Positions 1,206 to 55,991 of a DNA stretch of 64,000 bases are shown here, in pieces. How positions within the stretch are numbered: the first letter of the stretch is position 1; every line of letters starts with the position of its first letter. The notes beneath the pieces are model-generated. The model saw only the letters and a program-made list of their open reading frames with translations, was not told the origin of the DNA and did no database searches. A program made the position numbers and the translations under genes. The DNA is from Minisyncoccota bacterium. Its GTDB lineage: Bacteria > Patescibacteriota > Minisyncoccia > Phycocordibacterales > UBA5272. The DNA is taken from the NCBI GenBank assembly GCA_018063165.1, contig JAGOQU010000002.1:3048-67047 (forward strand), written 5' to 3'.

Positions 1206-1244
1206 ATACAAGCGTACCCTTACGGGTACGCTTGTATTTATTTT
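1204..1244. terminator. Bidirectional intrinsic terminator between convergent comM and the M23 peptidase
   Basis: Perfect hairpin aaatacaagcgtaccc-ttac-gggtacgcttgtattt flanked by A/T runs. Confidence 0.6.
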
Positions 1245-1262
1245 AATTAGTACACACAAACA

Positions 1263-2273
1263 TTAAAACGGATTCTTTGCTCCACGAACCTCAAAGTGAA
1301 GATGTGGACCTGTTGATCGCCCCGTGTTTCCAAGCTCTCCGATTTGTTCACCCTGATCTACTTGTTGTCCATTTTTTACCCCAACAGAACGAAGGTGGGC
1401 ATACACTGTCTGCACCCCATTATCATGACTTATAATTATCATGTTTCCGTATCCACCATTATATCCACCAACTTTTGCAACAATAACACGACCGGATGCA
1501 GATGCAAGTATTGGTGTTCCTGGTGTTGACGCTATATCTACTCCGTTATGACCATGAATACCTTGAGTTCTTCTTCCACCTACAACAGGTCTAATAAGGA
1601 AGCCGGATGGTGCTGAGTATGAATATGTATTAAGTATTTTTGTTTTAACAACACCATTTTTACTTGTAGTTGTTTTTTGAGGTTGTGCAACCATAGCTAT
1701 TTCACCATCAGGAATAAGCAATGTATCTCCTACCGCCAAATCAGTACCTTCTGTAACACCATTAAATTTAGCAATATCTTCTTTGTCTGCTTTATATTTT
1801 TTTGCCAACGAGACAATACTATCACCCTTTTTTATAGTATGTTTAATTCCAGTCATCGGTAAAATAACAAGAACATCTCCAGGAGAAATACGTTCTGACT
1901 TCATGTCATTTGCCCACATAATTGTATTTTTTGAAACATTAAAAAGTTTTGCTACGGTAACTAACGTATCTCCTTTTTTAACCTCATATACACTAATTGT
2001 ATCTGAAACAGGGAAATCTATATCTTCAGTAGAAATACGAAGAGAGCCTGTTGTCGCTTGCATCATATCTAAGTCATCAGATGAGCTTTCTCCTTCAAAG
2101 ATGGTAGAAGCTTCAACTACAGTAGGTTTAAACACATTCATTGTCTGAGAACTAACAGATTCTACATCTTCTTCTATTTCTTCTTTTACAAAAATAGCTT
2201 TTACTTTGTCGGTAAAAGCAGAAAGAGCTCCAGCATGCGCCTGTGCTGAAGAAAGAAAGAAAACACTACACAT
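1263..2273 (-). CDS. M23-family metallopeptidase with two LysM domains and an N-terminal signal peptide
   Basis: M23 motifs 'HNGVDIAS...G' and 'GNTGRSTGPHLHFEV'; LysM-like 'YEVKKGDTLVTVAKLFNV' and 'HTIKKGDSIVSLAKKY'; N-terminal hydrophobic signal. Confidence 0.8.
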   Translation of the reverse strand: MCSVFFLSSAQAHAGALSAFTDKVKAIFVKEEIEEDVESVSSQTMNVFKPTVVEASTIFEGESSSDDLDMMQATTGSLRISTEDIDFPVSDTISVYEVKKGDTLVTVAKLFNVSKNTIMWANDMKSERISPGDVLVILPMTGIKHTIKKGDSIVSLAKKYKADKEDIAKFNGVTEGTDLAVGDTLLIPDGEIAMVAQPQKTTTSKNGVVKTKILNTYSYSAPSGFLIRPVVGGRRTQGIHGHNGVDIASTPGTPILASASGRVIVAKVGGYNGGYGNMIIISHDNGVQTVYAHLRSVGVKNGQQVDQGEQIGELGNTGRSTGPHLHFEVRGAKNPF

Positions 2274-2528
2274 AAGGAAAGCTGTATATGACGTTACAAA
2301 TAAACGTTTGTTTATATCTACTACTATAAAGAAGGGTATATATTAAAAATCTATTACGATGAGAACCATTTGTAATAAATTCAGATTCCCCGTGGAAAAA
2401 CCACTGGGGAGGTACTAGATAAGTATAGCAAAAAATAGTCCTAAAAACAACAAAAAGTCTTCAAAAATACTGTGGAGAAGTCTCTTAAAAGTCCTTTTAA
2501 ATAAAGTATACTGAAATTACGTTACTTT

Positions 2529-4295
2529 ATGGGTCAACCAATTATTTCCTATTCAAAAAAAGGCTACATTTCGCCTTACAATAATCTCAGTAATGAGCTT
2601 GAAAATGGTACAAAACCTAATAATATTGGCACTTTTTCTCCTTCACAACCAAAAAAAGCTACATATAACTCTTGGACAGAAGCTTACAAAGATGCACATT
2701 TGAACTATGAAAACACACTTAAAAACAACAGAACCGGTAATAAATCTGTAGGAAAAGGTGAAATAGGACAAACAAAAGGTGTTTCTCCTGATATTGATCC
2801 AACAGGTATTGCAAATGTTACAAAATTACGACAAATGGGTTTTACTCCTGAGCAGATTATTACCTACACTAAACTTATTAAGTTTAATAGTGACAGCGTA
2901 CAGGATTTTCTAAAAAATGAAGAAGATAACACATACGTAGAAAAACCAACTGTAGAAAATGTAACAAAAACAGGGTATACAGCAAAACTTGAGCAAAAAA
3001 AAGAGGATACCTCCAAATCTGTTTCTTTTGCTCAAAAATATCGCGATCATGCAATGAAAATTGCCACAAGAACAACAAAAACTGAAAACACACAAAACAA
3101 AAAAGAAGAAGAAACACTTCAAAAAGTAAAGGAATTTATTCCAGAAAATACACCTAGGCCACCTACAAATAAAATACTTCGCGGTAAAAGTACTTCAAAT
3201 ACAACAAACAAAAAAGTTATACAGGAACCTATTGCAATAAATAAAAACAAAACAGAAGAAATTAAAACAACAGACATCCCTAATCCAGAACTAACCTCAA
3301 CTTCATTAGATACTATTTCAACTAATGAAAACATACTTTTACAAAAAGTAGTAACTCCTGTTGTAACAATAGACACAATAAAAGAAGGTGTTAGTACAGA
3401 AGAAACAATACATTCTTCAGGAACTACAGAGAATGTAGAAATTCCTACTTCAGAAAAAATCGATAAAAACCCTTTAACTATTTCACTTAATAACCAAGAA
3501 GAAGTACCTAAACCTGCAACAAATCCATTCTTAAGAAGAATGTTTACTGAGATAAGAGATACAAAAAATCCTATATCACAATCACAAGCTGAAGAATCAC
3601 CTACAGTAAAACCAATTTCTGCACCTGAAGAAACTAAGACAGCGGTAGTTGAAGTCGGTACATCACCACTCAACACTGAAAAAGTGACCGTGCTTACTCC
3701 AAACTTAATAGAACAAACAGTAGGTCAAGAAACAAGGGAGGGGAAAGTTGCCATTGTTCTTGACGTTCTTGTCAAACAAAGACTAAATAATAGCGCGGCT
3801 ATGTCTGGACCTTCAGCTACCAGTGTAAAGATTGAAGATACAACAACTACAATTCTAGAACATGTCGCACATAAAGAAACAATAACTTGGAAAGACTCTT
3901 TACGAGGTAATGAGATGACACTTTCAATTGTTGAAGATTTACAACCATCTATAGAAAAAGATTTTATAACGAAATACGTTCCCTCATATGTAGATCCAAA
4001 CAATCCTTCTTCTTGGGCTTCTATTTCTAACTTTAGTATCTACGAAATTATTCACGGTGCTGAAGCTGTCTACGGACTTAGTGATCAATCACGATCAGAA
4101 ATTAGTCATCTCATAAAACATCTTGGAGCAATAGACCAAGCTACAGATATGTCACAAGATACAAAAAAATATGGAAATGATGGTTTTGCAACATATGAAG
4201 ACTATATACTAAGTAATCAAAAAATGACTATACACGATTATTATAATGAAGTACGTAGTAGGATAGCGTCAGCAGAAAAGAAAGAACATAATTAA
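2529..4295 (+). CDS. Hypothetical protein, 588 aa, Thr/Lys/Glu/Asn-rich low-complexity, no transmembrane segment
   Basis: Long ORF with a strongly biased composition (TTKTENTQNKKEEE, TSTSLDTISTNE); no recognisable catalytic motif. Confidence 0.45.
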   Translation: MGQPIISYSKKGYISPYNNLSNELENGTKPNNIGTFSPSQPKKATYNSWTEAYKDAHLNYENTLKNNRTGNKSVGKGEIGQTKGVSPDIDPTGIANVTKLRQMGFTPEQIITYTKLIKFNSDSVQDFLKNEEDNTYVEKPTVENVTKTGYTAKLEQKKEDTSKSVSFAQKYRDHAMKIATRTTKTENTQNKKEEETLQKVKEFIPENTPRPPTNKILRGKSTSNTTNKKVIQEPIAINKNKTEEIKTTDIPNPELTSTSLDTISTNENILLQKVVTPVVTIDTIKEGVSTEETIHSSGTTENVEIPTSEKIDKNPLTISLNNQEEVPKPATNPFLRRMFTEIRDTKNPISQSQAEESPTVKPISAPEETKTAVVEVGTSPLNTEKVTVLTPNLIEQTVGQETREGKVAIVLDVLVKQRLNNSAAMSGPSATSVKIEDTTTTILEHVAHKETITWKDSLRGNEMTLSIVEDLQPSIEKDFITKYVPSYVDPNNPSSWASISNFSIYEIIHGAEAVYGLSDQSRSEISHLIKHLGAIDQATDMSQDTKKYGNDGFATYEDYILSNQKMTIHDYYNEVRSRIASAEKKEHN

Positions 4296-4304
4296 TTCTT
4301 ATAT

Positions 4305-4601
4305 ATGGATTTTACAAAACTTTACAATGATTTACCAAAAGATTTCAATCTTATAAATCTAAACAATGAAGAGAAAGAAGAGATGCTTTTTGAAATTTCA
4401 AAAACTATACAAAAGCAATTCCTGCTTGATGTATATGATCTTCTTGGTAAAGATAAGTTTGATGCGCTTCAAGCATCAGCTCAAATGGGGGATGAATTTT
4501 ATATCACAACACTTAAACATTTACTTCCAAGCTATGAAGAAGTGTTTGTTACTGCACGAATGAAAATAGTAACAGCGTTTAATAAAAATATAGCATCTTA
4601 A
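4305..4601 (+). CDS. Hypothetical small protein (98 aa)
   Basis: ORF immediately downstream of the previous gene, followed by terminator hairpin aaagggcgaaacc-gaa-ggtttcgcccttttt at 4627-4657. Confidence 0.35.
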   Translation: MDFTKLYNDLPKDFNLINLNNEEKEEMLFEISKTIQKQFLLDVYDLLGKDKFDALQASAQMGDEFYITTLKHLLPSYEEVFVTARMKIVTAFNKNIAS

Positions 4602-17160: not shown

Positions 17161-18984
17161 ATGGGAATTTTTGATTTTTTAAACGCCAACAAAAAAACAG
17201 ATAAACCTGTTGTTTCTCCTGTATTACCAGAACAGGTATATAAAATTGCAGAAATGCAACTAAAAGATGTTATAGCTCCAAGTGCTCTTGGTATCACTTC
17301 AAACGGTCTTAATCTTGGTACAGTTGTTGTTCGTTCTTATTTTGTTATATCATATCCACGTTATCTTACAGACAATTGGCTTTCTCCTATTATTAACCTT
17401 GATAAAGTTTTTAATGTTTCAATACACGTATCTCCACTTAACACCAGTGACGTCATGAAAACGTTTCAAAGAAAAGTTGCAGAAGTTGAAAGTCAGATTA
17501 TTACACGAGAAGAAGAGGGGAAAGTAAGAGACCCTGCTCTTGATGTAGCTTTTGAAGATCTTGAAGATCTTCGTGATGGTCTTATTCAGGCTCAAGAAAA
17601 AATGTTTGAAGTGTCTCTTTATATTTCTTTGTATGGAGAAAATGAAGAGGAGTTAGATAAAGTGGAAAATGAAATGAAAAACATACTTGAAAGTCGTCTT
17701 GTATATATCAAACCAGCTACATATCAACAAGATGTAGGTTTTCTTTCTACACTTCCATTAGGACAAGACAAGCTTGCAATAAAAAATAAAATAAACACAT
17801 CTCCTCTTTCTTCATTTTTCCCTTTTGTTTCTTCTGACCTTTCTTCAGATAAAGGTATTTTATATGGTCTTAATAGACATAACGGTAGTCTTATTCTATT
17901 TGATCGTTTTTCTTTAGAGAATTACAACTCTATCGTGTTTGCAAAATCTGGCTCTGGAAAAAGTTATTTAACAAAATTAGAAATACTACGAACACTCATG
18001 TTCGATACGGAGGTGATCATTATAGATCCAGAACGAGAATATGAATTCCTTGCAGAATCTGTAGGTGGTAGATATTTTGATATTTCTCTTACAAGTGATC
18101 ATCATATTAATCCTTTTGATCTTCCTAATCCAACTGCTGACGAATCTCCTTCTGAAGTTCTTCGTTCAAATATAGTTAATTTAGTTGGACTTTTTCGTGT
18201 TATGCTTGGAGGCCTTAGTCCAGAAGAAGATGCTATCGTTGACCAAGCTATCACCGAAACATATGCACTTAAAGATATAAATGGTGATTCTGATTTTACA
18301 AAACTAGAACCACCACTTCTTTCTGATTTTGAAATGGTATTAGGTGGTATAGATGGATCAGAAGATTTAATACAAAGACTTTCAAAATATACAAGGGGGA
18401 CATGGTCTGGTTTTATCAACAAACCTTCTAATGTTGATATCAATAAAAAACTCGTATGTTTTTCTATACGTGACATGGAAGATGAATTAAAAGCAGTGGC
18501 AATGTATATCATTACTCACTACATTTGGAATTCTGTACGTAAAAATATTAAAAAAAGACTTCTTGTTGTTGATGAAGCATGGATAATGATGAAAAACGAC
18601 GACACTGCATCGTTCTTATTTGGTCTTGCAAAACGTGGAAGAAAATACTATTTAGGTCTTGCTACTATTACGCAAGATGTTGGTGACTTCCTAAAATCAC
18701 CATATGGTCTACCTATTATTACGAACTCATCCATACAAATGCTTTTGAAGCAATCTCCTTCGTCTATCGATGTTATACAAAAAACATTCAACTTAACAGA
18801 TGAAGAGAAGTTTTTACTTCTTGAATCTGGTGTAGGTGAGGGGATATTCTTTGCAGGACTTAAACACGTAGCCATAAAAGTGGTTGCTTCATACACAGAA
18901 GATCAAATCATCACAAGTGACCCGTCTCAGCTTCTCAAAATAAAACAAATGAAGGATGAATTAGCAGAATCAAAAGGTTTATGA
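17161..18984 (+). CDS. VirB4/ConE/TraC-family T4SS ATPase, ATPase portion (607 aa)
   Basis: Walker A 'FAKSGSGKSYL', Walker B 'LLVVDEAWIMM', 'LATITQDV' motif; stop TGA overlaps the next gene's ATG. Confidence 0.8.
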   Translation: MGIFDFLNANKKTDKPVVSPVLPEQVYKIAEMQLKDVIAPSALGITSNGLNLGTVVVRSYFVISYPRYLTDNWLSPIINLDKVFNVSIHVSPLNTSDVMKTFQRKVAEVESQIITREEEGKVRDPALDVAFEDLEDLRDGLIQAQEKMFEVSLYISLYGENEEELDKVENEMKNILESRLVYIKPATYQQDVGFLSTLPLGQDKLAIKNKINTSPLSSFFPFVSSDLSSDKGILYGLNRHNGSLILFDRFSLENYNSIVFAKSGSGKSYLTKLEILRTLMFDTEVIIIDPEREYEFLAESVGGRYFDISLTSDHHINPFDLPNPTADESPSEVLRSNIVNLVGLFRVMLGGLSPEEDAIVDQAITETYALKDINGDSDFTKLEPPLLSDFEMVLGGIDGSEDLIQRLSKYTRGTWSGFINKPSNVDINKKLVCFSIRDMEDELKAVAMYIITHYIWNSVRKNIKKRLLVVDEAWIMMKNDDTASFLFGLAKRGRKYYLGLATITQDVGDFLKSPYGLPIITNSSIQMLLKQSPSSIDVIQKTFNLTDEEKFLLLESGVGEGIFFAGLKHVAIKVVASYTEDQIITSDPSQLLKIKQMKDELAESKGL

Positions 18985-38642: not shown

Positions 38643-38714
38643 GCTCTCGTAGTTCAATGGATAGAATTCAAGTTTGCGGTACTTGCGATGCAGGTTCGAT
38701 TCCTGCCGAGAGCA
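38643..38714 (+). tRNA. tRNA, manual fold gives anticodon GCG (Arg); identity needs tRNAscan confirmation
   Basis: Acceptor GCTCTCG/CGAGAGC, anticodon stem CAAGT/ACTTG with loop TTGCGGT, T-arm CAGGTTCGATTCCTG. Confidence 0.65.
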
Positions 38715-38758
38715 CAAATACAAAACAACGACACCAAAGTGTCGTTGTTTTGTATTTG
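38715..38758 (+). terminator. Long perfect hairpin immediately 3' of the tRNA
   Basis: caaatacaaaacaacgacac-caaa-gtgtcgttgttttgtatttg (20-bp stem). Confidence 0.6.
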
Positions 38759-45190: not shown

Positions 45191-45862
45191 ATGAAATCAA
45201 AACGTAAACATTTTCTCGCTTTATCACTCGCAAGTATTGGAGCTATTGGTGCATTTGCTTCGGTAAGTGCTGCATCGATACAATCAGGTTTAACAAATAA
45301 AGACAGAGACGAAGTAAGAACAGCTATTAAGCAGGCTGTAACAGCAGGTGACTATCAGGCATATCTTGCAACCACTAAAGAATATAAAATTGGTGTACCT
45401 GTTTTAACAGAATCTCAATTTTCAGTAATGGTGCAAGCACATAAACTTAGAGCATTAGGTGATAATGCAGGTGCAAAAAAATTACTAGATGATGCAAAAA
45501 TAACACCACCACAATCAAAAGAAGGAAATGGTGGAATGGGTTCAAAGCTTGGAAAAAGAAAAGATATGACAGCTTTTACAGATACACAGAAAACAGTAAT
45601 GAGACAAGCTCTTCTATTAAGAAAGGAGGGTAAAACAACAGAAGCAGATACTCTCCTTAAAAATGCTGGAATAAATACTCCTTTTCATAAAGGAGGAAAA
45701 GGAGGAGAAGGAATGAAAACATTTATGAGTGGTTTAACTGATACTCAGAAAGCGATAATGGATCAAGCTCACACACTTATGGAAAACGGAAAGAAAGATG
45801 AAGCTAGTGTTCTTATAAAAAATGCAGGCATAACACTTCCTCTTAGATCACAACTACAATAA
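45191..45862 (+). CDS. Secreted protein with internal tandem repeats
   Basis: Signal peptide; repeated units '...TDTQK.VM.QA..L...GK..EA..LLKNAGI.TP'. Confidence 0.45.
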   Translation: MKSKRKHFLALSLASIGAIGAFASVSAASIQSGLTNKDRDEVRTAIKQAVTAGDYQAYLATTKEYKIGVPVLTESQFSVMVQAHKLRALGDNAGAKKLLDDAKITPPQSKEGNGGMGSKLGKRKDMTAFTDTQKTVMRQALLLRKEGKTTEADTLLKNAGINTPFHKGGKGGEGMKTFMSGLTDTQKAIMDQAHTLMENGKKDEASVLIKNAGITLPLRSQLQ

Positions 45863-45907
45863 CATACATACATTAAATTGTATTTGTTCATATAGTATTT
45901 CTATCTT

Positions 45908-45941
45908 AAAAAAATACCAGTCATAACGACTGGTATTTTTA
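45908..45941. terminator. Bidirectional terminator hairpin
   Basis: aaaaataccagtc-ataa-cgactggtattttt. Confidence 0.55.
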
Positions 45942-46499
45942 TTATGTAAACATTTTCGTAAGTTCCGTGAGACATTCTGGTAGCTTTGTAAAACCAGCAC
46001 TACCGTTTAAATGTTTACCTTCATGAATAACAACCAAATCACAGTGTAATTTTTCTGCCAAGAATCCAGCATTTTGAATTGGTACAACAGGATCATCATC
46101 ACCATGAATAATTGCAAATCTAGATACTTTTGTATTTATTACATCAAAATTAATTGGTGTATTAAGAAAATGAGTAACTTTTTCATTTGTTGTTTTTTCA
46201 GCTGGACCAGACACAAGCACAGCTCCTTTAATGTGTATACCTTCTTTCATGGTTTCAAGATATTTAAGAATAGTAGGTACGCCAAGACTATGTCCAACCA
46301 AAAATAGTTCATCTTCTTGATTACGTTCTACATGTCTTTCTATTTCTTCAATCCATTCTGATAAAACAGGTGCCCCATGTTTTGGCATTGAAAGTGCACA
46401 TGCATAGACATCAATTTTTTGTAGTTCACTCATAAGCCAAGGTCTCCATCCACCATTAGGTGTTCCTTCTAGTCCATGAATAATAAATACTTTTTTCAT
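45942..46499 (-). CDS. Alpha/beta hydrolase, YdeN/RBBP9-like serine hydrolase
   Basis: 'VFIIHGLEG', nucleophile elbow 'LVGHSLGV', ~185 aa. Confidence 0.6.
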   Translation of the reverse strand: MKKVFIIHGLEGTPNGGWRPWLMSELQKIDVYACALSMPKHGAPVLSEWIEEIERHVERNQEDELFLVGHSLGVPTILKYLETMKEGIHIKGAVLVSGPAEKTTNEKVTHFLNTPINFDVINTKVSRFAIIHGDDDPVVPIQNAGFLAEKLHCDLVVIHEGKHLNGSAGFTKLPECLTELTKMFT

Positions 46500-46513
46500 A
46501 TTAGGGTAGTATT

Positions 46514-46777
46514 TTAAATTAAGCTAATTAAGAATACCCCAACAACTAAAACTAACAACCACATAAAAATAGTATTTTCAAATTTTAATAAGAGTAAACC
46601 CCAAAAATAAAACAAAATGGAGGATATTAAAGAACTAATAACAATAGCCAGAAAACTTTTTTTAGAAGAAAGGCTTGTTACTATAGATAAGATAAAAAAG
46701 AAAAAAGAAAGATATCTAACACCTTTCTCATCATGAATAAATTTCATAATAGCACCCATAAAAATAAGTAAAAACAT
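46514..46777 (-). CDS. Small membrane protein (87 aa)
   Basis: Three hydrophobic helices. Confidence 0.3.
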   Translation of the reverse strand: MFLLIFMGAIMKFIHDEKGVRYLSFFFFILSIVTSLSSKKSFLAIVISSLISSILFYFWGLLLLKFENTIFMWLLVLVVGVFLISLI

Positions 46778-46898
46778 GATTTTAAAATTAAGTTACAAGA
46801 ATTTTTAAATAAGTAGTTTAATTGTAACATGAATCATTTTTAATAAGAGATACTAAATTTGTAGAAAATGTAGCATTATTATTTGTTGTAAAAATGTG

Positions 46899-47045
46899 AG
46901 ATTCGATTACAAAAGCAATCACTTCGTTCGAGAAGTTTTCGCATTTGTTCAAGTCCAAGACATAACCTTGCTAGGTTAGAACCGAATCTGCTGATTCGCC
47001 TATTCGAATCTCACACGAAAGTGACGCAGGTCACTTGCTTTCTAC
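46899..47045. repeat. tRNA-T-arm-derived palindromic repeat and GCAG-loop hairpin module
   Basis: Inverted copies 'gtgagattcga' (46899) and 'tcgaatctcac' (47003), which match the T-arm of nearby tRNAs. Internal segment 'caagtccaagacataacc...' homologous to 56128-56225 with compensatory changes. Hairpin aagtgac-gcag-gtcactt. Confidence 0.6.
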
Positions 47046-47177
47046 TTCTTCACTGTCAAAATAAAAATAGAGTAAGAAGCTCTGTTTTTATTTTGATGCA
47101 GGCACTGTGGGACGAAATTGGAATATTGCTATACATGAATAACACACCATAAAAACTTATCATTGTTTATATATAAA

Positions 47178-47798
47178 TTAAAGAAGTCTAGATATTGTAT
47201 TATAAATACTAGTTTCTATAACATCTATAATATTTCGCCTCAAAGATTTTTTCTTCTTTAATACATCAAAAATGATATGAATTCTTGTTTCATTACTTCT
47301 GTTTTCAACGTGATGCATTTTTTTATTATCAAACCACCAGAGTTCTCCAGTGTTATAGATTTGATTCTCACTTCCACAAAAATTAATACTGTTGTTTGTT
47401 TTTAAAACAAGATGATACCTGTCTCTTGTAAGGTAGTATGAGCCTTCATCTATATGTGGCTTAACATTAGAATTACCATCTAATGTGACTATCATCACTC
47501 GTTCAAGTTGACCACCAAGTTCCTTTTCAAAAATTTTTAATAGACTAATTGTTTTTGTAAAATATGGAGCATTTTGTGGAACAGTAATTATATTCCCTGA
47601 ATTTCTATAATATTCTACAGTATTATCTTTTCTATTAATCTTATGCTCCCTTAAACTAACATGTTTTGTGTTCTCGTGATATGAAATATTTTTTGAGCGA
47701 ACATTACTCCATGTGTTTTTTTCTAGAAAATTAGAAAGTTCTAAGAGTGTCGTGGATACGTCTACATCCTTTTTTATTAATTTAAAATTTTGTTTCAT
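47178..47798 (-). CDS. Aspartyl/asparaginyl beta-hydroxylase-like 2OG-Fe(II) oxygenase (cupin fold)
   Basis: 'KPHIDEG' (HxD) and downstream 'HHVEN' His; length and spacing fit the Asp_Arg_Hydrox family. Confidence 0.45.
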   Translation of the reverse strand: MKQNFKLIKKDVDVSTTLLELSNFLEKNTWSNVRSKNISYHENTKHVSLREHKINRKDNTVEYYRNSGNIITVPQNAPYFTKTISLLKIFEKELGGQLERVMIVTLDGNSNVKPHIDEGSYYLTRDRYHLVLKTNNSINFCGSENQIYNTGELWWFDNKKMHHVENRSNETRIHIIFDVLKKKKSLRRNIIDVIETSIYNTISRLL

Positions 47799-47825
47799 TT
47801 TATAATTCTAGTGTATACTTATTGT

Positions 47826-47957
47826 ATGAATGATACCACTAAAAATAGAACTAAAAAAATACTGATTTACTTATTGTACGCAGTTTTATCGTGCTTCTAT
47901 TTTTTTCTTGGTTATGGATTTGTAGGCAGTATGATGGGTATTGGACAAGGTGATTAA
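47826..47957 (+). CDS. Possible small TM peptide (43 aa)
   Basis: 'MNDTTKNRTKKILIYLLYAVLSCFYFFLGYGFVGSMMGIGQGD'; below the ORF-track threshold, speculative. Confidence 0.2.
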   Translation: MNDTTKNRTKKILIYLLYAVLSCFYFFLGYGFVGSMMGIGQGD

Positions 47958-47962
47958 ACACT

Positions 47963-48121
47963 ATGATTAAAAATGCTCTTAAATTTATAGGCGTTAACGT
48001 TATTCTACTCGTTGTCTTTTTCTTATTAGGTGGACTCTCAGCTTTTTTAGTGTTGCAAAAACAAATTATTCACCAAAAGATACTAGTGACTCCACTCACA
48101 TCAACCAGCACTACTGATTAA
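47963..48121 (+). CDS. Possible small TM peptide (52 aa)
   Basis: 'MIKNALKFIGVNVILLVVFFLLGGLSAFLVLQKQ...'; speculative. Confidence 0.2.
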   Translation: MIKNALKFIGVNVILLVVFFLLGGLSAFLVLQKQIIHQKILVTPLTSTSTTD

Positions 48122-48202
48122 ACAAAATAACCACCGATTTTGGTGGTTATTTCTATGTGTGTTGCGGAGGCATATTCATAGTCGCGAGTACGTTCCTGAA
48201 TT
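48121..48202 (+). repeat. Repeat R1 copy A (hairpin aaataaccacc-gatttt-ggtggttattt + ~50 nt), followed by a ~95-bp insertion absent from copy B
   Basis: Aligned by eye to 50961..51040, with 3-4 substitutions over ~80 bp. Confidence 0.8.
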
Positions 48203-48299
48203 AGCAAATTCATGTCTTAGACCGATTTCTTAGATTGTAATCAATCTTCAATTAGCAAATTGACCTATCGGGTTTGAAATCGCAATCTTGTGGACTCCT
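48203..48299 (+). mobile_element. ~95-bp insertion/MITE-like element interrupting R1 copy A
   Basis: Copy B reads 'gtacgctccttgaaatgcactgcgcaaa' contiguously. Copy A has 'gtacgttcct|gaattagcaaatt...gtggac|tccttgaaatgcactgcgcaaa', with internal duplicated 'aattagcaaatt' and possible 'tcct' target duplication. Confidence 0.5.
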
Positions 48300-48387
48300 T
48301 GAAATGCACTGCGCAAATTATAGTCGCTCGATTACGAACTCCTTAATTTGTGGGGACTTTGGGACGAAGTTGGAATTTTAATTAATC

Positions 48388-48933
48388 TTAAACAAATCTA
48401 ACTCTTTTAGCTTCTTCCAAAAGAAACAATGTCCTTCTTGTTATAAAACTATCCTTTTGATTTTTAAGACATCTTATGGCTTCTTCTAAAGATAGCCATA
48501 CAACAGTAAGACCATCATGAACATCCTCTTTTGTAAACTGGGGGTTATTTTTTTCTCCATCAACATCAGCAGTAAAGCAATAGTTGAACTGAACCCTTCT
48601 TTTATTGAACTCATTACCAATTCCTCGTTCTTCTATAGTTCCTAATTCTTGAATATTTTTAATCTTACAACCGGTTTCTTCTAACGCTTCACGAATAAGA
48701 GCATCTTCAATTAGTTCACCTTCATCAATTCCACCACCGATTATAGAATATCTAAATGTATCATTGCCTTCATTAACAGCCCCTAATGCAACATTTCCTT
48801 CTGTATCAAAAATAACAATGCGAGTAGTTCTACGAGACTTTAGATATTCACTTTCTGGTGTTATTTCATTATTTGGATAAATATCTCTTTCTATTAAAGT
48901 TAAAATGGTTTTCATGTTATTTTTTAAATTCAC
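48388..48933 (-). CDS. NUDIX hydrolase
   Basis: NUDIX box 'GGGIDEGELIEDALIREALEETGCKI'. Confidence 0.8.
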   Translation of the reverse strand: MNLKNNMKTILTLIERDIYPNNEITPESEYLKSRRTTRIVIFDTEGNVALGAVNEGNDTFRYSIIGGGIDEGELIEDALIREALEETGCKIKNIQELGTIEERGIGNEFNKRRVQFNYCFTADVDGEKNNPQFTKEDVHDGLTVVWLSLEEAIRCLKNQKDSFITRRTLFLLEEAKRVRFV

Positions 48934-49447
48934 TCTTTAATTTACTATATATTAAGACGTCATAATATTTATTACCAATCTTCTTATCATCTCTTAATGT
49001 TCCTTCATATATAAACCCATTCTTTTCTGCTAATTTCTTAGATCTTTCATTATAAGAATATGTGCCATACTGCAATCTGTGTAATTTAAATTTTGTAAAA
49101 GCTGTTTTACATAAAAAATTTAACGCTTCTGACCCATAACCATTACCCCAAAATTCTTCCTTAATAGATAATGAAATCTTTGCGCTATTATTTTTCTTAT
49201 CAAATCTGTTTATGCTACATCTACCAATATATTCTTTATTTTTATTGAGAATTAAAAAAGTTGCTCTATTACCAATCTTTTCTTCTTTAATAATCTTTTT
49301 ATGATCTTCTAGATATTTTTTAAAAGTTAAATAATCAAATTCCTTCTTTAAAGTTCCGGATGAAAAATATATAACATTTTCTTCAAGGTTATCAAAACAT
49401 AATCTTGCATCTTTTAATTCTAATGGCTTAAAAGTTAATTTATACAT
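48917..49447 (-). CDS. GNAT-family N-acetyltransferase (RimJ/RimL-like)
   Basis: 'EEFWGNGYGSEALNFLCKTAF' acetyl-CoA binding motif; overlaps the NUDIX gene by 17 nt, suggesting an operon. Confidence 0.75.
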   Translation of the reverse strand: MYKLTFKPLELKDARLCFDNLEENVIYFSSGTLKKEFDYLTFKKYLEDHKKIIKEEKIGNRATFLILNKNKEYIGRCSINRFDKKNNSAKISLSIKEEFWGNGYGSEALNFLCKTAFTKFKLHRLQYGTYSYNERSKKLAEKNGFIYEGTLRDDKKIGNKYYDVLIYSKLKSEFKK

Positions 49448-49470
49448 AATTTTTTATTTTATACTAAAAA

Positions 49471-50013
49471 TTAAATCTCAATAATATACTTTTTATGCAA
49501 AACGATAGGCAAACCACTCTTAGACGCCTTGTCTATCGTGTCTTGAGTTCCTGTACTGTTATTAACTTGAAAAGCATACACTTCATCTGAGATCTTTACT
49601 TCCTCATCATGACGGTCATTATAATGATCTTGTGTGATAATATCATTTGGCATTTCAGATAAAGATTCAGGATTAGCATCTTTTATTTTTTGAAGAAGCT
49701 TTTCAAGGTTATTAACATTTTCTGTAGTAATTGGTGCTATTGTCCAATTAGTGTGATAGTCATACACATAACTCTTAAACATTGCTGGAATAATAACTTT
49801 TAATCGTGAAGCATCAGGATATAGCCTCATTGCTTCATCCATAGCAAAGTAATCCACCCCTGTAGCTCCACCTGTTACGATTCCATCGCCACGAGAAAGT
49901 ACTTCCCGAGTTGCTTCACGAACATCATTCTCAACTTCTTGATTTGTAAGTTTCCAAGTTCCTGTAAATAGTATCCATTTCATAGTTACTATTTTAACAT
50001 GGTATGGGTTCAT
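49471..50013 (-). CDS. SLOG/DprA-LOG-like Rossmann-fold nucleotide-binding protein
   Basis: 'VTGGATGVDYFAMDEA' glycine-rich motif reminiscent of DprA/LOG/YpsA (SLOG) families; assignment tentative. Confidence 0.35.
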   Translation of the reverse strand: MNPYHVKIVTMKWILFTGTWKLTNQEVENDVREATREVLSRGDGIVTGGATGVDYFAMDEAMRLYPDASRLKVIIPAMFKSYVYDYHTNWTIAPITTENVNNLEKLLQKIKDANPESLSEMPNDIITQDHYNDRHDEEVKISDEVYAFQVNNSTGTQDTIDKASKSGLPIVLHKKYIIEI

Positions 50014-50195
50014 TGTATAAAATTTTTCTGTAAATGACTGCCCCGTTTAAACTACATGTTTATATGCAATATATAAATGAAAATTGAAAATTGTATTGGA
50101 GCAACACATAATTTTCTAGATTGAAAACTACTCTTTAGTTTCTTGTTTGAGTTAAAATAAAAACAAAAACCGCTAACGCAGTTTTTGCGTAGCGG

Positions 50196-50489
50196 TTATT
50201 TAAGCCGTTCAATGGGGATGTTCACGTCATTGAGACACGCAACGGATACACCAGCAGTAACAAGGGTGTTAGGTGGGTAAAGTTTGAATGTTCCAAGAGA
50301 CCGACGAATCAACCTTTCAAGGTCCTGTGTTTGACCTTCGATAAAAACATTGGAAATGTGCTCAAGCGTAGGTGTCGAGATTTCTGAGGTCTCTTTTTTT
50401 ACGTACCGTAAATAAGAATCAGGGTTTTTGGTATCAAGAACCGTAGATATTTTAGCAATACATAATTGCCGTTTCTCTCTATCCTTCAT
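50196..50489 (-). CDS. Hypothetical protein (97 aa), second gene of a two-gene pair
   Basis: ORF; terminator hairpin overlapping the stop (50168-50198). Confidence 0.35.
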   Translation of the reverse strand: MKDREKRQLCIAKISTVLDTKNPDSYLRYVKKETSEISTPTLEHISNVFIEGQTQDLERLIRRSLGTFKLYPPNTLVTAGVSVACLNDVNIPIERLK

Positions 50490-50510
50490 TAGACGCTCCT
50501 AAGTTGAGAA

Positions 50511-50735
50511 TTATTTACTTGTATTTCGATATGAACCACCACGATAGCGGTTGTAACGTTTTGCATAGTAGGGAACTTTGGTTGTTTCGACTCTGCAACA
50601 CATTTGCTGAGGAACGAAAATTTTAGAAATTTGACCAAGAAGTTTTTCCTCCTGAATTGAATTGAATTCCTCAAAATCTGAGGATAAGTAAGCAGCTACA
50701 GTTGGGGTATGGCTGACAACAGTAAGAGTACACAC
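50511..50735 (-). CDS. Hypothetical small basic protein (74 aa), first gene of the pair
   Basis: ORF 22 nt upstream of the previous gene; C-terminus Arg/Tyr-rich. Confidence 0.3.
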   Translation of the reverse strand: MCTLTVVSHTPTVAAYLSSDFEEFNSIQEEKLLGQISKIFVPQQMCCRVETTKVPYYAKRYNRYRGGSYRNTSK

Positions 50736-50960
50736 CTTTTTATTTCCTTAAGTTAAAAGAGCCACTTCCTGAAAGAGATTTTTAGTATCTTTAAGGATGT
50801 TACAAGTATACACGAAATACATATTTTGTCAAGTATCACCATTGACGACTTGTAAATTAAGTGTTTTCGTGTTAGTGTCCTCTGTAATGGATAAAAACCA
50901 TTAAAAACTCATATTCATTCTGTAAGAACAGAACTGAGAAACAATACAAGTACCGAGAAA

Positions 50961-51040
50961 TAACCACCGATTTTGGTGGTTATTTTTATGTGTGTTGCGG
51001 AGGCATATTCATAGTCGCGAGTACGCTCCTTGAAATGCAC
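50961..51040 (+). repeat. Repeat R1 copy B
   Basis: See copy A; together they bracket ~2.8 kb. Confidence 0.8.
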
Positions 51041-51079
51041 TGCGCAAAATATGTCTTTTGTTTACAAAAGACTATTTTG

Positions 51080-51170
51080 CGGAGAATGTGAGATTCGAAC
51101 TCACGGGCCTAATAAAAGGCCGACGGTTTAGTAAACCGTTGATTTAAGCCACTCATCCAATTCTCCTGTA
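51080..51170 (-). tRNA. Type-II (long variable arm) Ser-like tRNA with atypical anticodon arm; manual fold gives anticodon ACU
   Basis: Minus-strand fold: acceptor GGAGAAT/ATTCTCC, T-arm GTGAGTTCGAATCTCAC, variable arm CGGCCTTTTATTAGGCCCG, anticodon arm ACGGT-TTACTAA-ACCGT that is part of a perfect palindrome ACGGTTTA-C-TAAACCGT. Confidence 0.5.
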
Positions 51171-51224
51171 CAAGCAATAATACCAAAATAAATAGCTTTA
51201 GTCACTGTTTTATAAAAAAACTTT

Positions 51225-51572
51225 TTATTTTGAAAGTGTGCCTATTCTGAGTTCTTGTAATAAAGATTGAGCTTCTCCTTTTGTGTGTTTTCTTTCACTT
51301 GTAAACATGGTGGTTGCATCATGTCCACAACCACGAAGTATTTCTGGGTTATGTTTTCCAGAAGCTATGAAAGATGTTGCATCGATAACAGAAGAATCTA
51401 TCGCTATCCAACAATCTTCTTTTGTAGCATGTTTTGCTACTTCTTCTAAGGTAAAGGTTTTGTTGTTTGTTGTTGTATTTGTAGTAACAGTAGTTGTTTG
51501 TTTTCTTAGTGTAAAAAACATAGTAATACTAATAATGATTACAATAAGTATAACGAGCATTGTTTTATTCAT
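51225..51572 (-). CDS. Membrane-anchored cytochrome b5-like domain protein (HPGG replaced by GKHNPE)
   Basis: 'TLEEVAKHATKEDCWIAIDSSVIDATSFI...GCGHDATTMFTSERKH...LLQELRIGTL' follows the cyt-b5 domain pattern; N-terminal TM. Confidence 0.45.
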   Translation of the reverse strand: MNKTMLVILIVIIISITMFFTLRKQTTTVTTNTTTNNKTFTLEEVAKHATKEDCWIAIDSSVIDATSFIASGKHNPEILRGCGHDATTMFTSERKHTKGEAQSLLQELRIGTLSK

Positions 51573-51678
51573 ATACTGGAGTATACGAATAGTTTGTTAT
51601 TTTTCTTTCATATACTATATATAAAGTAAATATAGTATATAATGGTGTGTAACTTATTAGATATAGTATTTAAAATGT

Positions 51679-52686
51679 ATGAATAAACATAAAATTCTAG
51701 CCATAATAATGGCAGGGGGTATAGCTTTAACAGGAATATATGTTTCTTTTGCTGAAGAAAATGACGAACTTTCTTTTGATTTAAAGTTTGGACAAAGGGG
51801 AACACAAATTACTAAACTTCAAGATTTTCTTATAGAAAAGGGATATCTTAACACAAATTCTACAGGGTATTTTGGAAGAATGACTGCAAACGCCGTAGCT
51901 CGTTATCAAAAAGAAAATAACTTAGATTCTGTTGGTCGTGTCGGCCCACTTACACGTAAAGCTATGAATAAAGACATGCGAACTTTAAAAGAATTTAAGA
52001 AAAAAGGAGATGACCACTCTACACAAAATTCTCTTGATGTAGATGGTGTATATTCAGGAACACTTCCTTGTGCATCATGTTCTGGAATAGAGACAACACT
52101 TGAACTTAACAAAGGAACGTACACTCTTGTTGAAAAGTATCTAAAGAGTGACACTCTTGTATCTACTACAACAGGTTCGTTTACTTGGAAAGATAAAAAT
52201 GTAATCCAATTAACCGGTATAGCAACCGGAACACGATCGGTAATGTATAAAGTTGGTGAAAATACAATAACACAGCTTAATATGGATGGTAATATGGTTA
52301 CAGGAGAAACTGCTCCTTTCTATACGTTAAAGAAAGTTGTTGCGACAGGGTATTTTGTTGAAGATAAGAAGTGGAAAATGGTAGAACTTGAAGGAAAACC
52401 AATAACTGGTTCTGTTGAGACGTATTACATAGTGCTTCACTCAAAAGAGAAAAGATTAGAAACAAAAGCGGGATGTAATCAAATGGGTGGTATGTATACA
52501 TTAGATGGATATAGATTCAAAACATCAGGAGTATTTTCTACAATGATGGCATGTGAGAATATGAATGATGAGCAAGCATTTTCAAAAGTATTAGAACTTG
52601 CTGATAACATTTCATATTCTGAAACTAACCTATCTTTCAACAAAGCTAGAATGGCTCCACTTGCGAGATTTGAACTAGTGAAGTAA
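51679..52686 (+). CDS. Peptidoglycan-binding domain + NlpE-N-like + META/HslJ-like domain protein
   Basis: PG_binding_1 pattern 'GTQITKLQDFLIEKGYLN...GYFGRMTANAVARYQKENNLDSVGRVGPLT'; 'LPCASCSGIETTLEL' NlpE-like. Confidence 0.55.
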   Translation: MNKHKILAIIMAGGIALTGIYVSFAEENDELSFDLKFGQRGTQITKLQDFLIEKGYLNTNSTGYFGRMTANAVARYQKENNLDSVGRVGPLTRKAMNKDMRTLKEFKKKGDDHSTQNSLDVDGVYSGTLPCASCSGIETTLELNKGTYTLVEKYLKSDTLVSTTTGSFTWKDKNVIQLTGIATGTRSVMYKVGENTITQLNMDGNMVTGETAPFYTLKKVVATGYFVEDKKWKMVELEGKPITGSVETYYIVLHSKEKRLETKAGCNQMGGMYTLDGYRFKTSGVFSTMMACENMNDEQAFSKVLELADNISYSETNLSFNKARMAPLARFELVK

Positions 52687-52708
52687 TTTGAAGTTTCTTG
52701 TTTAAAAG

Positions 52709-52740
52709 AAAAACAGAGCTTGAATGCTCTGTTTTTCTTT
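52709..52740 (+). terminator. Terminator hairpin
   Basis: aaaaacagagc-ttgaat-gctctgttttt. Confidence 0.55.
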
Positions 52741-52745
52741 TGATG

Positions 52746-52832
52746 CGGAGGAGGTGAGATTCGAACTCACGGTCCGATTACTCAGACTCCTGTTTTCAAG
52801 ACAGGTGCAATCGACCACTCTGCCACTCCTCC
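52746..52832 (-). tRNA. tRNA-Ser (anticodon TGA), type II
   Basis: Minus-strand fold: GGAGGAGTGGCAGAGTGG..., anticodon arm CCTGT-CTTGAAA-ACAGG, long variable arm, T-arm GTGAGTTCGAATCTCAC. Confidence 0.75.
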
Positions 52833-52919
52833 ATATTATTATCGATTGATACCTATTCTAACATACATATTTTGTTTTTTAAAGGTATCACTATATACTA
52901 GTATGATTACAATAAATAT

Positions 52920-53978
52920 ATGCAAAAAGAAGTACATACTACTACATTGCTTAGTGTCATAAAATATAAATATGCCCCATTTTTTATAATAGTACTATCT
53001 GGTATTATTTTTGGTGCCGGATATATAACATCTTCTTTAATTACTGAAGATAAATACCAAGATTTTTTGAGTAATTTTAAGAACATCCGTGAAGATACAT
53101 CAAAATATACGTTTATTAACCCACTCGTTGGTAACATAAGTGCACCAGCGACAGATGTTGGTATATATACAGATATTAAAGAAGATATAGATTCTTATTT
53201 GGAAAAACAAAAGAAAAAAGGTGAATTGTTTAATTATTCTTTTTATTTTAGAGATTTGAATTCTGGTCTTTGGTTTGGTTCTAACGAATTAGAATCTTTT
53301 TTTCCTGCTAGTTTATTTAAATTACCTATTGCTCTTGCAGCATACAAACAAACAGAAGATAAGCCTGGTTTCATTAATACAATGGTTGTATATACAGAGG
53401 ATATAGCAAAAAGAAATGAGGTAGTACAAATAAATGCAGTGAGTACTCTTACTATAGGGAAAGCATATTCAATAGAGTATCTAATAGAAAGAATGTTAAT
53501 TGACTCTGATAACGGAGCAAAAGATTTAATACTTTCTGTTCTTGATATGAAATATTTTGATGATCTTTTTCAGACTGTATCTTTTGTTGATTATAATACA
53601 GATAATAAGTATTCACTTTCTTCTTGTAAATATTCTTTGTTTCTAAGAGTTCTTTATGGGTCATCGTATGTTAATGAAACACATTCAGAACTTATTATGT
53701 CTTTACTAACTAAAAGTGAATATAAAGATGGTTTGGTAGGAGGTATACCAGGTTCTGTTAAGGTAGCTCATAAGTTTGGTACGTATCAGTTTGATGAAGA
53801 GGAAAAAGGTGTAACAGTTTCTTCAAGACAGTTACATGATTGTGGTGTTGTGTACCATTTAGAAAATCCATATGTTATTTGTTTCATGACAAAAGGAAAA
53901 GATCTTGAAACGTTACAAAAAATAATTGGACATATTTCTTCCTTAGTATATCAATATCAATCAGAAGGAGATCATTAA
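52920..53978 (+). CDS. Beta-lactamase class A-like / penicillin-binding serine hydrolase fold protein
   Basis: 'ASLFK' (SxxK), 'DSDN' (SDN), 'HKFGT' (K[T/F]G); N-terminal TM. Confidence 0.55.
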   Translation: MQKEVHTTTLLSVIKYKYAPFFIIVLSGIIFGAGYITSSLITEDKYQDFLSNFKNIREDTSKYTFINPLVGNISAPATDVGIYTDIKEDIDSYLEKQKKKGELFNYSFYFRDLNSGLWFGSNELESFFPASLFKLPIALAAYKQTEDKPGFINTMVVYTEDIAKRNEVVQINAVSTLTIGKAYSIEYLIERMLIDSDNGAKDLILSVLDMKYFDDLFQTVSFVDYNTDNKYSLSSCKYSLFLRVLYGSSYVNETHSELIMSLLTKSEYKDGLVGGIPGSVKVAHKFGTYQFDEEEKGVTVSSRQLHDCGVVYHLENPYVICFMTKGKDLETLQKIIGHISSLVYQYQSEGDH

Positions 53979-53986
53979 ATATATAT

Positions 53987-54448
53987 ATGAAATATCTTGG
54001 TTTAGATTTTGGTTCTAAAAAAGTTGGATTTGCTCAGTCAGATGATGAAGGAAGACTTGCTTTTCCTCTCATGATTGCACCAAATGATACTTCTTTGTTA
54101 AAAGATACACTTGAACTTATTCGTGAAATGAAGTTTTCTGTTGTTGTAATAGGGGAGAGTGTTGATGGTAATGGAACATTAAATCCAATAGCAAAAGAAG
54201 CTAGAGCTTTTGGTGCAAAAATTGAAAATGGAATAGATGTTATTGTAAAATTTGAAAAGGAGTGGTATTCGACAGTGGAAGCTCGTAAACAACCTGGTAA
54301 TGAAGGTAATCATGAAGTTGACGATCAAGCCGCTGCTATTGTTCTTCAAAGATATCTTGATAAGATTAACGGTCCACAAATATCTGAAGAAACATTTGGT
54401 GATGAAGAAGATTTGGATGAAGTAGAACAAACTTCTGATTCTTGGTAA
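53987..54448 (+). CDS. ruvX: YqgF/RuvX-like Holliday-junction-resolvase-family nuclease
   Basis: 'YLGLDFGSKKVGFAQSDDEGRLAFPL', 'VVVIGESVDGNG' RNase H-fold pattern. Confidence 0.7.
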   Translation: MKYLGLDFGSKKVGFAQSDDEGRLAFPLMIAPNDTSLLKDTLELIREMKFSVVVIGESVDGNGTLNPIAKEARAFGAKIENGIDVIVKFEKEWYSTVEARKQPGNEGNHEVDDQAAAIVLQRYLDKINGPQISEETFGDEEDLDEVEQTSDSW

Positions 54449-55717: not shown

Positions 55718-55754
55718 AACAAAATACGTTTTATTTAAATAGTTTTTTGTAGAT

Positions 55755-55772
55755 GTGCCCTCGCGTGGAATC
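55755..55772 (+). repeat. Direct copy of the tRNA-Arg(TCT) 3' end (gtgccctcgcgtggaatc), ~145 bp beyond the gene
   Basis: 18/18 nt identical to 55919..55936. Confidence 0.75.
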
Positions 55773-55869: not shown

Positions 55870-55917
55870 TTAATATAAAAAGTACCCACTGATTACAGTC
55901 GGTACTTTTTATATTAA
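55870..55917. terminator. Long perfect hairpin adjacent to the tRNA-Arg(TCT) 3' end
   Basis: ttaatataaaaagtacc-(14 nt)-ggtactttttatattaa. Confidence 0.55.
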
Positions 55918-55919
55918 TG

Positions 55920-55991
55920 TGCCCTCGCGTGGAATCGAACCACGAATAACGGCTTAGAAGTCCGCAGTTATATCCATTTAACTACAAGGGC
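55920..55991 (-). tRNA. tRNA, manual fold gives anticodon TCT (Arg); weak 27:43/31:39 pairs
   Basis: Minus-strand: GCCCTTG-TA-GTTA...TAAC-T-GCGGA-CTTCTAA-GCCGT-...CGTGGTTCGATTCCACG-CGAGGGC-A. Confidence 0.6.

Follow-up and report, generated by a model that had tools for sequence, protein, structure and literature searches.

Anticodons that start with A are nearly absent from nature, above all from two-fold codon boxes, and this has long been puzzling. A review of 2021 describes the eight ANN anticodons of split boxes as universally missing and 'prohibited', phages included, on a bacterial sample without the candidate phyla radiation, CPR (PMC8007984). A 2026 preprint by Raval et al., working from GtRNAdb (4047 bacteria), found ANN genes of two-fold boxes to be sporadic and always alongside GNN genes, and called the absence of ANN a mystery; CPR and phages go unmentioned (bioRxiv 10.64898/2026.05.15.725136). 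In the same study an engineered Ser-tRNA(ACU) was tolerated by Escherichia coli and improved growth, and ANN tRNAs were translationally active. Here we analyse a natural gene for tRNA-Ser(ACU), found in a 64,000-nt stretch (hereafter, the window) of contig JAGOQU010000002.1 from a Minisyncoccota bacterium (GCA_018063165.1). We consider it likely that this gene encodes a functional elongator tRNA, and that it belongs to a CPR isoacceptor family that exists in addition to tRNA-Ser(GCU). The gene, its anticodon and the neighbouring serine tRNA used for comparison lie as follows:

51079..51166, minus strand: tRNA-Ser(ACU) gene (ARAGORN, Rfam, covariance-model alignment, family covariation)
51130..51132, minus strand: anticodon A34-C35-U36, A34 being the complement of the T at 51132
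51123..51139, minus strand: anticodon arm, near-palindromic 17-mer ACGGTTTACTAAACCGT (sequence, family alignment)
52745..52832, minus strand: tRNA-Ser(UGA) (ARAGORN), the standard within the window against which serine identity and the T arm were judged

The gene is an 88-nt class-II tRNA, GGAGAAUUGGAUGAGUGGCUUAAAUCAACGGUUUACUAAACCGUCGGCCUUUUAUUAGGCCCGUGAGUUCGAAUCUCACAUUCUCCGC. ARAGORN run on the window calls tRNA-Ser with anticodon ACT at 51079-51166, and the Rfam tRNA model (RF00005) scores the gene at 53.5 bits against a gathering threshold of 29 (E ~1e-8 over the whole window). The match spans model positions 1-71 and is not truncated, and the score falls within the range of the other six tRNAs of the window (51-69 bits). 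Covariance-model alignment resolves the anticodon arm as ACGGU-UUACUAA-ACCGU, with a 7-nt loop in the standard register and high posterior probability. The acceptor stem is a perfect 7 bp (GGAGAAU/AUUCUCC) with discriminator G73, the D stem has 3 bp, the T arm reads GUGAG-UUCGAAU-CUCAC, and CCA is not encoded. The long variable arm contains a paired stem (GGCCU-UUUAUU-AGGCC) that covaries across the family. The anticodon arm is palindromic because its 5-bp stem encloses the complementary positions U33/A37, U32/A38 and A34/U36.

With tRNA-Ser(UGA), 1.6 kb away, the gene shares the GGAG acceptor start, the pairs G1-C72, G2-C71 and A3-U70 together with G73 (GGAG...CUCC-G), and 19 nt of the T-arm region without a difference; both have the T arm CCGUGAGUUCGAAUCUCAC. 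Every serine isoacceptor in the related loci begins GGAG or GGAA. Serine identity is thus supported by the long paired variable arm, G73, the GGAG start and the Ser(UGA)-like T arm. Window positions 45225-54443, tRNA included, are 100% identical to a contig of an independent metagenome-assembled genome (MAG), GCA_017992935.1.

The sequence-only reading had noted an atypical type-II tRNA at 51080-51170. The gene is at that place, with exact bounds of 51079-51166 on the minus strand. ARAGORN and the Rfam score of 53.5 bits bear out the Ser-like body with its long variable arm (the D-region TGGATGAGTGG is present), the ARAGORN call and the covariance-model register agree on the ACU anticodon in the ACGGT-TTACTAA-ACCGT arm, and the palindromic 17-mer lies at 51123-51139, a palindrome save for its central base. 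The proposed tRNA scoring, run with ARAGORN and Rfam, returned neither a standard anticodon, nor a register shift, nor a pseudogene score. Three explanations had been offered, a pseudo-tRNA, an integration-target copy and a decoding oddity. The last has held up and is stronger than guessed, since the gene is no one-off and belongs to an isoacceptor with A34 that is conserved and serves a split codon box; the other two have not. A pseudogene is contradicted by the intact cloverleaf with unbroken stems, the score over threshold, the gene's own promoter-like site and terminator-like hairpin, the compensatory changes within a large family, and the 100% identity in an independent MAG. We also rejected an error of register in the manual fold, as the covariance model places UUACUAA in the standard register. 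The remark that the loop contains CUA does not lead to a suppressor or recoding tRNA read in a shifted register: the 7-nt loop is in standard register, and the genetic code is standard, with long table-11 open reading frames (ORFs), AGU as Ser and AGA as Arg.

Two further observations concern the gene itself. Two independent short-read contigs from Logan (SRR11088409 and SRR11088410) both stop at window position 51132, which is A34; either the assembly graph branches here because the anticodon arm is common to related species, or the anticodon is truly heterogeneous. On the strand opposite the 3' half of the tRNA (51080-51131, plus strand), the Rfam family 'Plastid-psbI-rps4 3'UTR RNA' gives 43.7 bits, below its threshold of 68. 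The match crosses the reverse complement of the T arm, and the consensus of that family may largely be antisense to a plastid serine tRNA.

The gene is flanked by candidate transcription signals:

51177..51205, minus strand: promoter-like site with -35 GTGACT, 17-nt spacer and TG-extended -10 TATTAT (consensus match)
51053..51072, minus strand: terminator-like hairpin GTCTTTTGTAAACAAAAGAC with tail ATATTTTG, a few nt 3' of the tRNA

The candidate -10 hexamer ends 11 nt 5' of the tRNA start, and a related locus (L094) has TGTATAAT at equal distance 5' of its own ACU tRNA. Among the matches listed, a -10-like TANNNT lies 6-13 nt upstream of 92 of 175 family genes, compared with 50 +/- 5.6 in shuffles. 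The tRNA would be transcribed from its own promoter and end at its own hairpin, both sites being consensus matches.

We scanned a collection of species-representative genomes with a pattern comprising a serine-type D loop, the loop YTACTAA, a long variable region and the T loop GTTCRAATC, and found it at no fewer than 120 loci. The prevalence figures of all four collection scans (these genomes, viral contigs, viral contigs anchored on Ser(UGA), and metagenomes anchored on Ser(GCU)) are lower bounds. The invariance of U33-A34-C35-U36 across the family follows from the construction of the search, and the same four nucleotides are present in all ARAGORN calls. ARAGORN calls tRNA-Ser(ACT) in 119 of the 120 genome loci listed. 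At least 87 of these listed loci carry labels of Patescibacteria groups, namely Paceibacteria, Saccharibacteria, Microgenomates, Levy-, Nomura-, Magasanik-, Woese-, Falkow- and Gottesmanbacteria and others; the rest are labelled as bacteria only (7), as third-party MAGs of Gammaproteobacteria/Pseudomonadales (16) or as other phyla (10). The 16 Gammaproteobacteria/Pseudomonadales MAGs (L008, L012, L037, L052, L057, L065, L100 and others) have Microgenomates-type serine tRNAs, tRNA-Arg(GCG) and contigs of ~1 Mb; judged from these features, their taxonomic labels are probably wrong and the genomes CPR-like instead. Four ACU genes under other phyla (Flavobacteriales, Pirellulales, Polynucleobacter and Phycisphaerales) are 88-100% identical to ACU tRNAs of viral contigs and probably represent prophage or contaminant DNA.

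The family shows the marks of purifying selection on tRNA structure. RNAalifold on 84 members returned a cloverleaf in which 18 of the 26 pairs show double compensatory changes; three of these lie in the anticodon stem. Within that stem, 27-43, 28-42 and 29-41 covary, and G30-C40, U31-A39, U32 and A38 are near-invariant (U32/A38 is retained in 82 of the 84). With the anticodon arm removed, the tRNA bodies closest to that of the window come, among the matches listed, from Paceibacterota and Nomurabacteria MAGs (90-94% identity), and the source organism is very probably one of the Patescibacteria. After the same deletion, 116 of 121 ACU bodies among the matches listed have a further ACU body as nearest neighbour, and mean identity is 0.71 between ACU bodies versus 0.63 between ACU and GCU bodies. 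The ACU bodies thus cluster apart from GCU bodies, which makes them orthologues and not recurrent G34A mutants. ORFs within 2.5 kb of the 120 listed ACU genes, when clustered, gave no dominant conserved partner family; the commonest neighbours were ComFC-like proteins (21), RecG (14), PilM (11), ABC proteins (10) and histidine kinases (9).

Ordinary tRNA-Ser(GCU) is usually found close by in CPR. It is present in 65 of the 120 genome loci listed, in the same 8-kb block and mostly less than 500 nt upstream. We also scanned metagenomes for the Paceibacteria-type GCU tRNA, which gave a sample picked irrespective of ACU: among the matches listed, 54 of 113 such loci carry an ACU gene, as do 40 of the 79 with at least 300 nt on both sides of the GCU gene, usually in divergent orientation and 63-130 nt away. 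Hence, at least about half of these lineages have a linked GCU/ACU pair. The 65 genome loci and 40 metagenome loci with both genes also mean that ACU is an addition to GCU and not a replacement. In the window the ACU gene has no linked GCU gene, so the gene can sit elsewhere. Most likely, given these comparisons of tRNA genes, the Patescibacteria hold one old, vertically inherited isoacceptor family beside their ordinary Ser(GCU).

A tRNA-Ile(UAU) gene is frequent beside CPR Ser(GCU) and Ser(ACU) genes (16 in metagenome loci, L365-L484, and 4 in genome loci, L004-L123), which hints that CPR read AUA by a U34 tRNA rather than by a lysidine tRNA.

The ACU pattern also occurs in IMG/VR viral contigs, at 120 loci or more. 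ARAGORN calls Ser(ACT) in all 120 viral loci listed, most of them within tRNA arrays that hold as many as 27 genes, and only 1 of these 120 also has Ser(GCU). In a viral sample anchored on Ser(UGA), 30 of the 120 loci listed carry GCU, 3 carry ACU and none carries both; ACU thus makes up about a tenth of phage AGY decoders. Ralstonia phage RP13 (LC554890.1, 138609-138698) is a cultured example. Phages appear to have evolved or acquired ACU independently, usually in place of GCU. Some of the ACU-bearing arrays also carry tRNA-Arg(ACG). The viral loci (L124-L364) contain other A34 genes, namely Leu(AAG), Thr(AGU), Gly(ACC), Pro(AGG), Phe(AAA) and His(AUG), and several CUA suppressor-like tRNAs (called as 'Pyl').

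The window is bacterial, with 32% G+C, and includes dnaA, murE, PBP1A, pilB and a VirB4-like ATPase gene. Its ORFs are long under table 11. AGT codons specify the nucleophilic serine of a GHSLG hydrolase, the Walker-A serine in PilB and the serine of an SxxK motif, which speaks indirectly for charging of the tRNA with serine. In alignments with CPR homologues, AGT of the window stands mostly opposite TCN serine codons and AGA opposite CGN arginine codons. AGA, which shares the AGN box with AGU and AGC, is the commonest arginine codon of the window (284 of 584). Two arginine tRNAs of the window are relevant:

55919..55991, minus strand: tRNA-Arg(UCU), the cognate reader of AGA (ARAGORN)
38643..38715, plus strand: tRNA-Arg(GCG), with G34 replacing the usual bacterial A34 of ACG (ARAGORN, Rfam)

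Among the matches listed, the related genome loci have eight tRNA-Arg(GCG) genes (L052, L065, L090 and L100 included) and no tRNA-Arg(ACG), and no other A34 tRNA was found in the 120 genome loci listed. In the literature, tRNA-Arg(ACG) is linked to the presence of tadA, and the loss of tadA in Mollicutes is cited as well (PMC8007984). The use of Arg(GCG) instead of ACG suggests that this lineage may have no substrate for a tRNA A34 deaminase, and that CPR may be without the TadA/I34 (inosine-34) system altogether. A deaminase search of the window and ~1.6 Mb of loci returned a single, Cdd-like ORF.

We propose the following mechanism. Seryl-tRNA synthetase (SerRS) recognises the long variable arm, the acceptor stem and G73, and ignores the anticodon. 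The ACU tRNA would accordingly be charged by SerRS independently of its anticodon, and serine would be the sole NNY split box that tolerates a G34-to-A34 change without loss of charging. On the ribosome A34 would form a Watson-Crick pair with the U of AGU; there may also be weak pairing to the C of AGC. We think it probable that A34 escapes deamination to inosine.

The alternative is that TadA or a retargeted relative converts A34 to inosine, so that ICU reads both AGU and AGC, as the I34 tRNAs of eukaryotes and Lactobacillales do. TadA reportedly requires, from the work of Wolf and colleagues in 2002, the loop U33-A34-C35-G36. The ACU loop matches three of these four determinants (U33-A34-C35) and departs from the fourth, position 36 being U instead of G. 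Deamination in a split box has a precedent in E. coli, where a Phe-tRNA(AAA) became I34 (bioRxiv 10.64898/2026.05.15.725136), and the phage arrays that combine ACU with Arg(ACG) imply TadA-positive hosts. However, ICU would pair with AGA, the commonest arginine codon, which aligns with CGN arginine and has its own tRNA-Arg(UCU), and the lineage has Arg(GCG) rather than the tadA-associated Arg(ACG) (PMC8007984). On this balance we regard inosine as an unlikely solution.

Several points weigh against the proposal of an elongator with unmodified A34. All our evidence is computational, and expression, charging and the state of A34 are predictions from sequence. The AGU fraction of the window (0.85) lies within the range of the other NNY boxes (0.73-0.89), ACU and GCU phages do not differ in their use of AGU versus AGC when measured against other NNY boxes (p = 0.84), and AGU-specific codon adaptation was found neither in the window, nor in pooled CPR loci, nor between ACU and GCU phages. 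The raw share of AGY among serine codons is 0.44 in ACU phages versus 0.36 in GCU phages. The window, at 64 kb, has no tRNA-Ser(GCU). No TadA was found in the window and related loci (1.65 Mb, mostly CPR; tblastn with E. coli TadA and the zinc-deaminase motif), an amount of sequence in which one or two could be expected at most. It has been proposed that A34, when unmodified, can 'superwobble' (bioRxiv 10.64898/2026.05.15.725136); this would misread the abundant AGA, against which the tRNA would have to discriminate. Codon usage gives no sign of a benefit of ACU over G-U wobble by GCU.

Going beyond the single gene, we suggest tentatively, and at a little less than even chance, that Patescibacteria as a group and about one in ten phage AGY decoders naturally keep an A34 tRNA in a split box, in genomes whose main arginine codon is AGA. 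If this is true, then either unmodified A34 discriminates well here against purine-ending codons, or some A34 modification not yet known restricts decoding. The rule of 'no ANN anticodons in two-fold boxes' would then be contingent on synthetase identity and TadA, and not a constraint of the ribosome.

The ACU gene lies at the edge of a segment bounded by a repeated element:

50958..51052, strand not assigned: right copy of a ~95-nt conserved element, 3' of the tRNA (repeat comparison)
48125..48321, strand not assigned: left copy of the element, split by a 97-nt insert (repeat comparison)

The sequence-only reading was right to see repeats here. They are direct copies, with 97% identity between 48125-48197 and 50958-51030 and 96% between 48295-48321 and 51026-51052 (27 nt). 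A second terminator-like hairpin (50956-50987) lies within the right copy. The two copies bound a 2.8-kb accessory segment with NUDIX, GNAT and small ORFs, among which no recombinase or integrase was found. The idea that the tRNA is the target copy of an integration does not fit this window. The right repeat stops 27 nt past the 3' end of the tRNA and contains no part of it, no tRNA fragment is present near 48.1-48.4 kb, and blastn-short of the tRNA against the window matches only the T arm of Ser(UGA). Duplication of an att site, or a tRNA rebuilt by an element, was rejected because no 3' part of the tRNA lies at the repeats and the segment ORFs include no integrase. NUDIX and GNAT homologues are also found downstream of the ACU tRNA in a Nomurabacteria MAG (L040), and together these observations argue that the ACU anticodon is not a by-product of integration.

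In L094 the situation is different. Its intact ACU tRNA is followed by a 4-kb island (187-4200) and then by a decayed copy of the 3' third of the tRNA, joined to a homologue of the element found downstream in the window. Judged from this arrangement, L094 bears the classic signature of an element inserted at the ACU tRNA, and the locus can therefore act as an integration hot spot in the lineage. Encoded in the island are a protein with a SWIM zinc finger, a fusion of a helicase with a TOTE-type archaeo-eukaryotic primase, and a Fic/DOC protein. It has the appearance of a defence or conflict island that integrated at the ACU tRNA.

The element itself is a conserved non-coding sequence (~GCGCAGTGCA...GGAGCGTAYYCGCGAC...GCCTCCGC, then a terminator-like hairpin), duplicated in the window. 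It recurs in L094 at ~4215-4385 and in L099 at 91-143; a related Paceibacterota MAG has two units of it in tandem. Each time it lies downstream of the 3' end of a serine tRNA, and Rfam gave no significant match to it. Elsewhere in the window, the last ~20 nt of tRNA-Arg(UCU), GATTCCACGCGAGGGCACA, are repeated 164 nt downstream, past its terminator hairpin (55743-55772 versus 55907-55936), which may be a scar of integration or excision. A VirB4-like conjugal-transfer ATPase (17161-18984; CD1110 family, 379 bits) lies in a run of mostly unannotated ORFs on the same strand, and could be part of the type IV secretion system of monoderm type that has been described in Patescibacteria.

The island of L094 bears on a second alternative, in which ACU is kept mainly as a defence-proof spare that nucleases of the anticodon loop, or other toxins directed at tRNAs and keyed to the GCU loop, would fail to see. 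Phage tRNAs have been proposed to evade anticodon nucleases through loop changes (PMC10264068). An anticodon change of this kind would be open to serine only, as SerRS ignores the anticodon, and in phage arrays ACU essentially replaces GCU, with both in 1 of the 120 ACU loci listed and never in the Ser(UGA)-anchored sample; codon usage does not account for the choice. Nevertheless, we know of no nuclease specific for tRNA-Ser(GCU), and none was found in the literature covered. CPR chromosomes hold the two genes side by side, often with one promoter region between them, which has a housekeeping look, and no defence gene is a conserved neighbour in the 120 loci listed. Like inosine, a defensive role seems improbable to us.

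Still less probable is a serine-charged tRNA used mainly outside translation, for example as an aminoacylation donor for the cell wall or for lipids. Staphylococci have dedicated non-proteinogenic tRNAs, and ACU is redundant with GCU for decoding. However, the T arm, where the determinants of EF-Tu affinity lie, is identical to that of the proteinogenic Ser(UGA), phage arrays hold ACU among ordinary decoders, and no tRNA-dependent enzyme, whether of Fem/MprF type or another, is conserved nearby (the top neighbours reach at most 21 of the 120 loci listed). Finally, a decaying or accidental G34A mutant of Ser(GCU), or a functionless copy rebuilt by an element, can practically be dismissed: a single G-to-A change would turn GCU into ACU, the gene adjoins a repeat-flanked accessory segment and L094 shows integration at such a tRNA, but the ACU bodies form a separate family (0.71 versus 0.63 identity), compensatory changes and the identical copy in an independent MAG speak for maintenance, and neither repeat includes a tRNA fragment.

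Taken as a molecule, tRNA-Ser(ACU) is nothing unusual, namely a serine tRNA. Its isoacceptor class is a variant that, according to current accounts, does not occur in nature. A full-text literature search gave no description of tRNA-Ser(ACU) in bacteria or phages. Such genes must already receive labels from annotation pipelines, and others may have noticed the family earlier. The family is a natural test bed for the avoidance of A34, and sits in genomes where misreading would be costly. It is conserved over much of a superphylum, and together with its large phage reservoir it offers real organisms in which to measure the state of A34, the discrimination of AGU/AGC from AGA/AGG and any benefit; candidate systems are cultivated Saccharibacteria, if they have the gene, and Ralstonia phage RP13. 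For annotation, Ser(ACU) genes should not be flagged as pseudogenes or errors, and in phyla outside CPR they may mark prophage or contaminant DNA, the compared cases being 88-100% identical to tRNAs of viral contigs.

Among the known systems that come close is canonical bacterial Ser(GCU). Both are class-II tRNAs with G73, a GGAG start and the loop U-U-N-C-U-A-A, both serve the same AGY box, and modification of A37 is presumed in both, as in other readers of ANN codons. They differ in A34 instead of G34, in the D arm (GGAUGAGUGGYUUAAAUCA in ACU versus GUGUCAGAGUGGUCUAACGUA in GCU) and in the anticodon stem (G30-C40 versus C30-G40), and their bodies cluster apart. Unmodified A34 is known from reduced genomes, in tRNA-Thr(AGU) of Mollicutes and tRNA-Arg(ACG) of yeast mitochondria. 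Those tRNAs likewise belong to small, AT-rich genomes with reduced modification sets, but they serve four-fold boxes, where extra reading is harmless, whereas the ACU box is split with the arginine codons AGA and AGG. Leu-AAG and Thr-AGU of Lactobacillales resemble the ACU family as lineage-wide non-ACG ANN genes of AT-rich bacteria; they too belong to four-fold boxes, replace GNN and are deaminated to I34, while the ACU family serves a two-fold box, keeps GCU alongside and would be harmed by inosine. The tRNase-evading phage tRNAs (PMC10264068) share with phage ACU genes their place in arrays and a loop that differs from the host-type isoacceptor, but their changes lie outside the anticodon, whereas ACU changes the anticodon itself and is also chromosomal in CPR. 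The engineered Ser-tRNA(ACU) of E. coli has the same anticodon on a serine body, and its authors ascribe the benefit of overexpression to a low likelihood of mistranslation. E. coli rarely uses AGA or AGG. That case is artificial, whereas AGA is dominant in the window, so the natural tRNA-Ser(ACU) represents the harder test.

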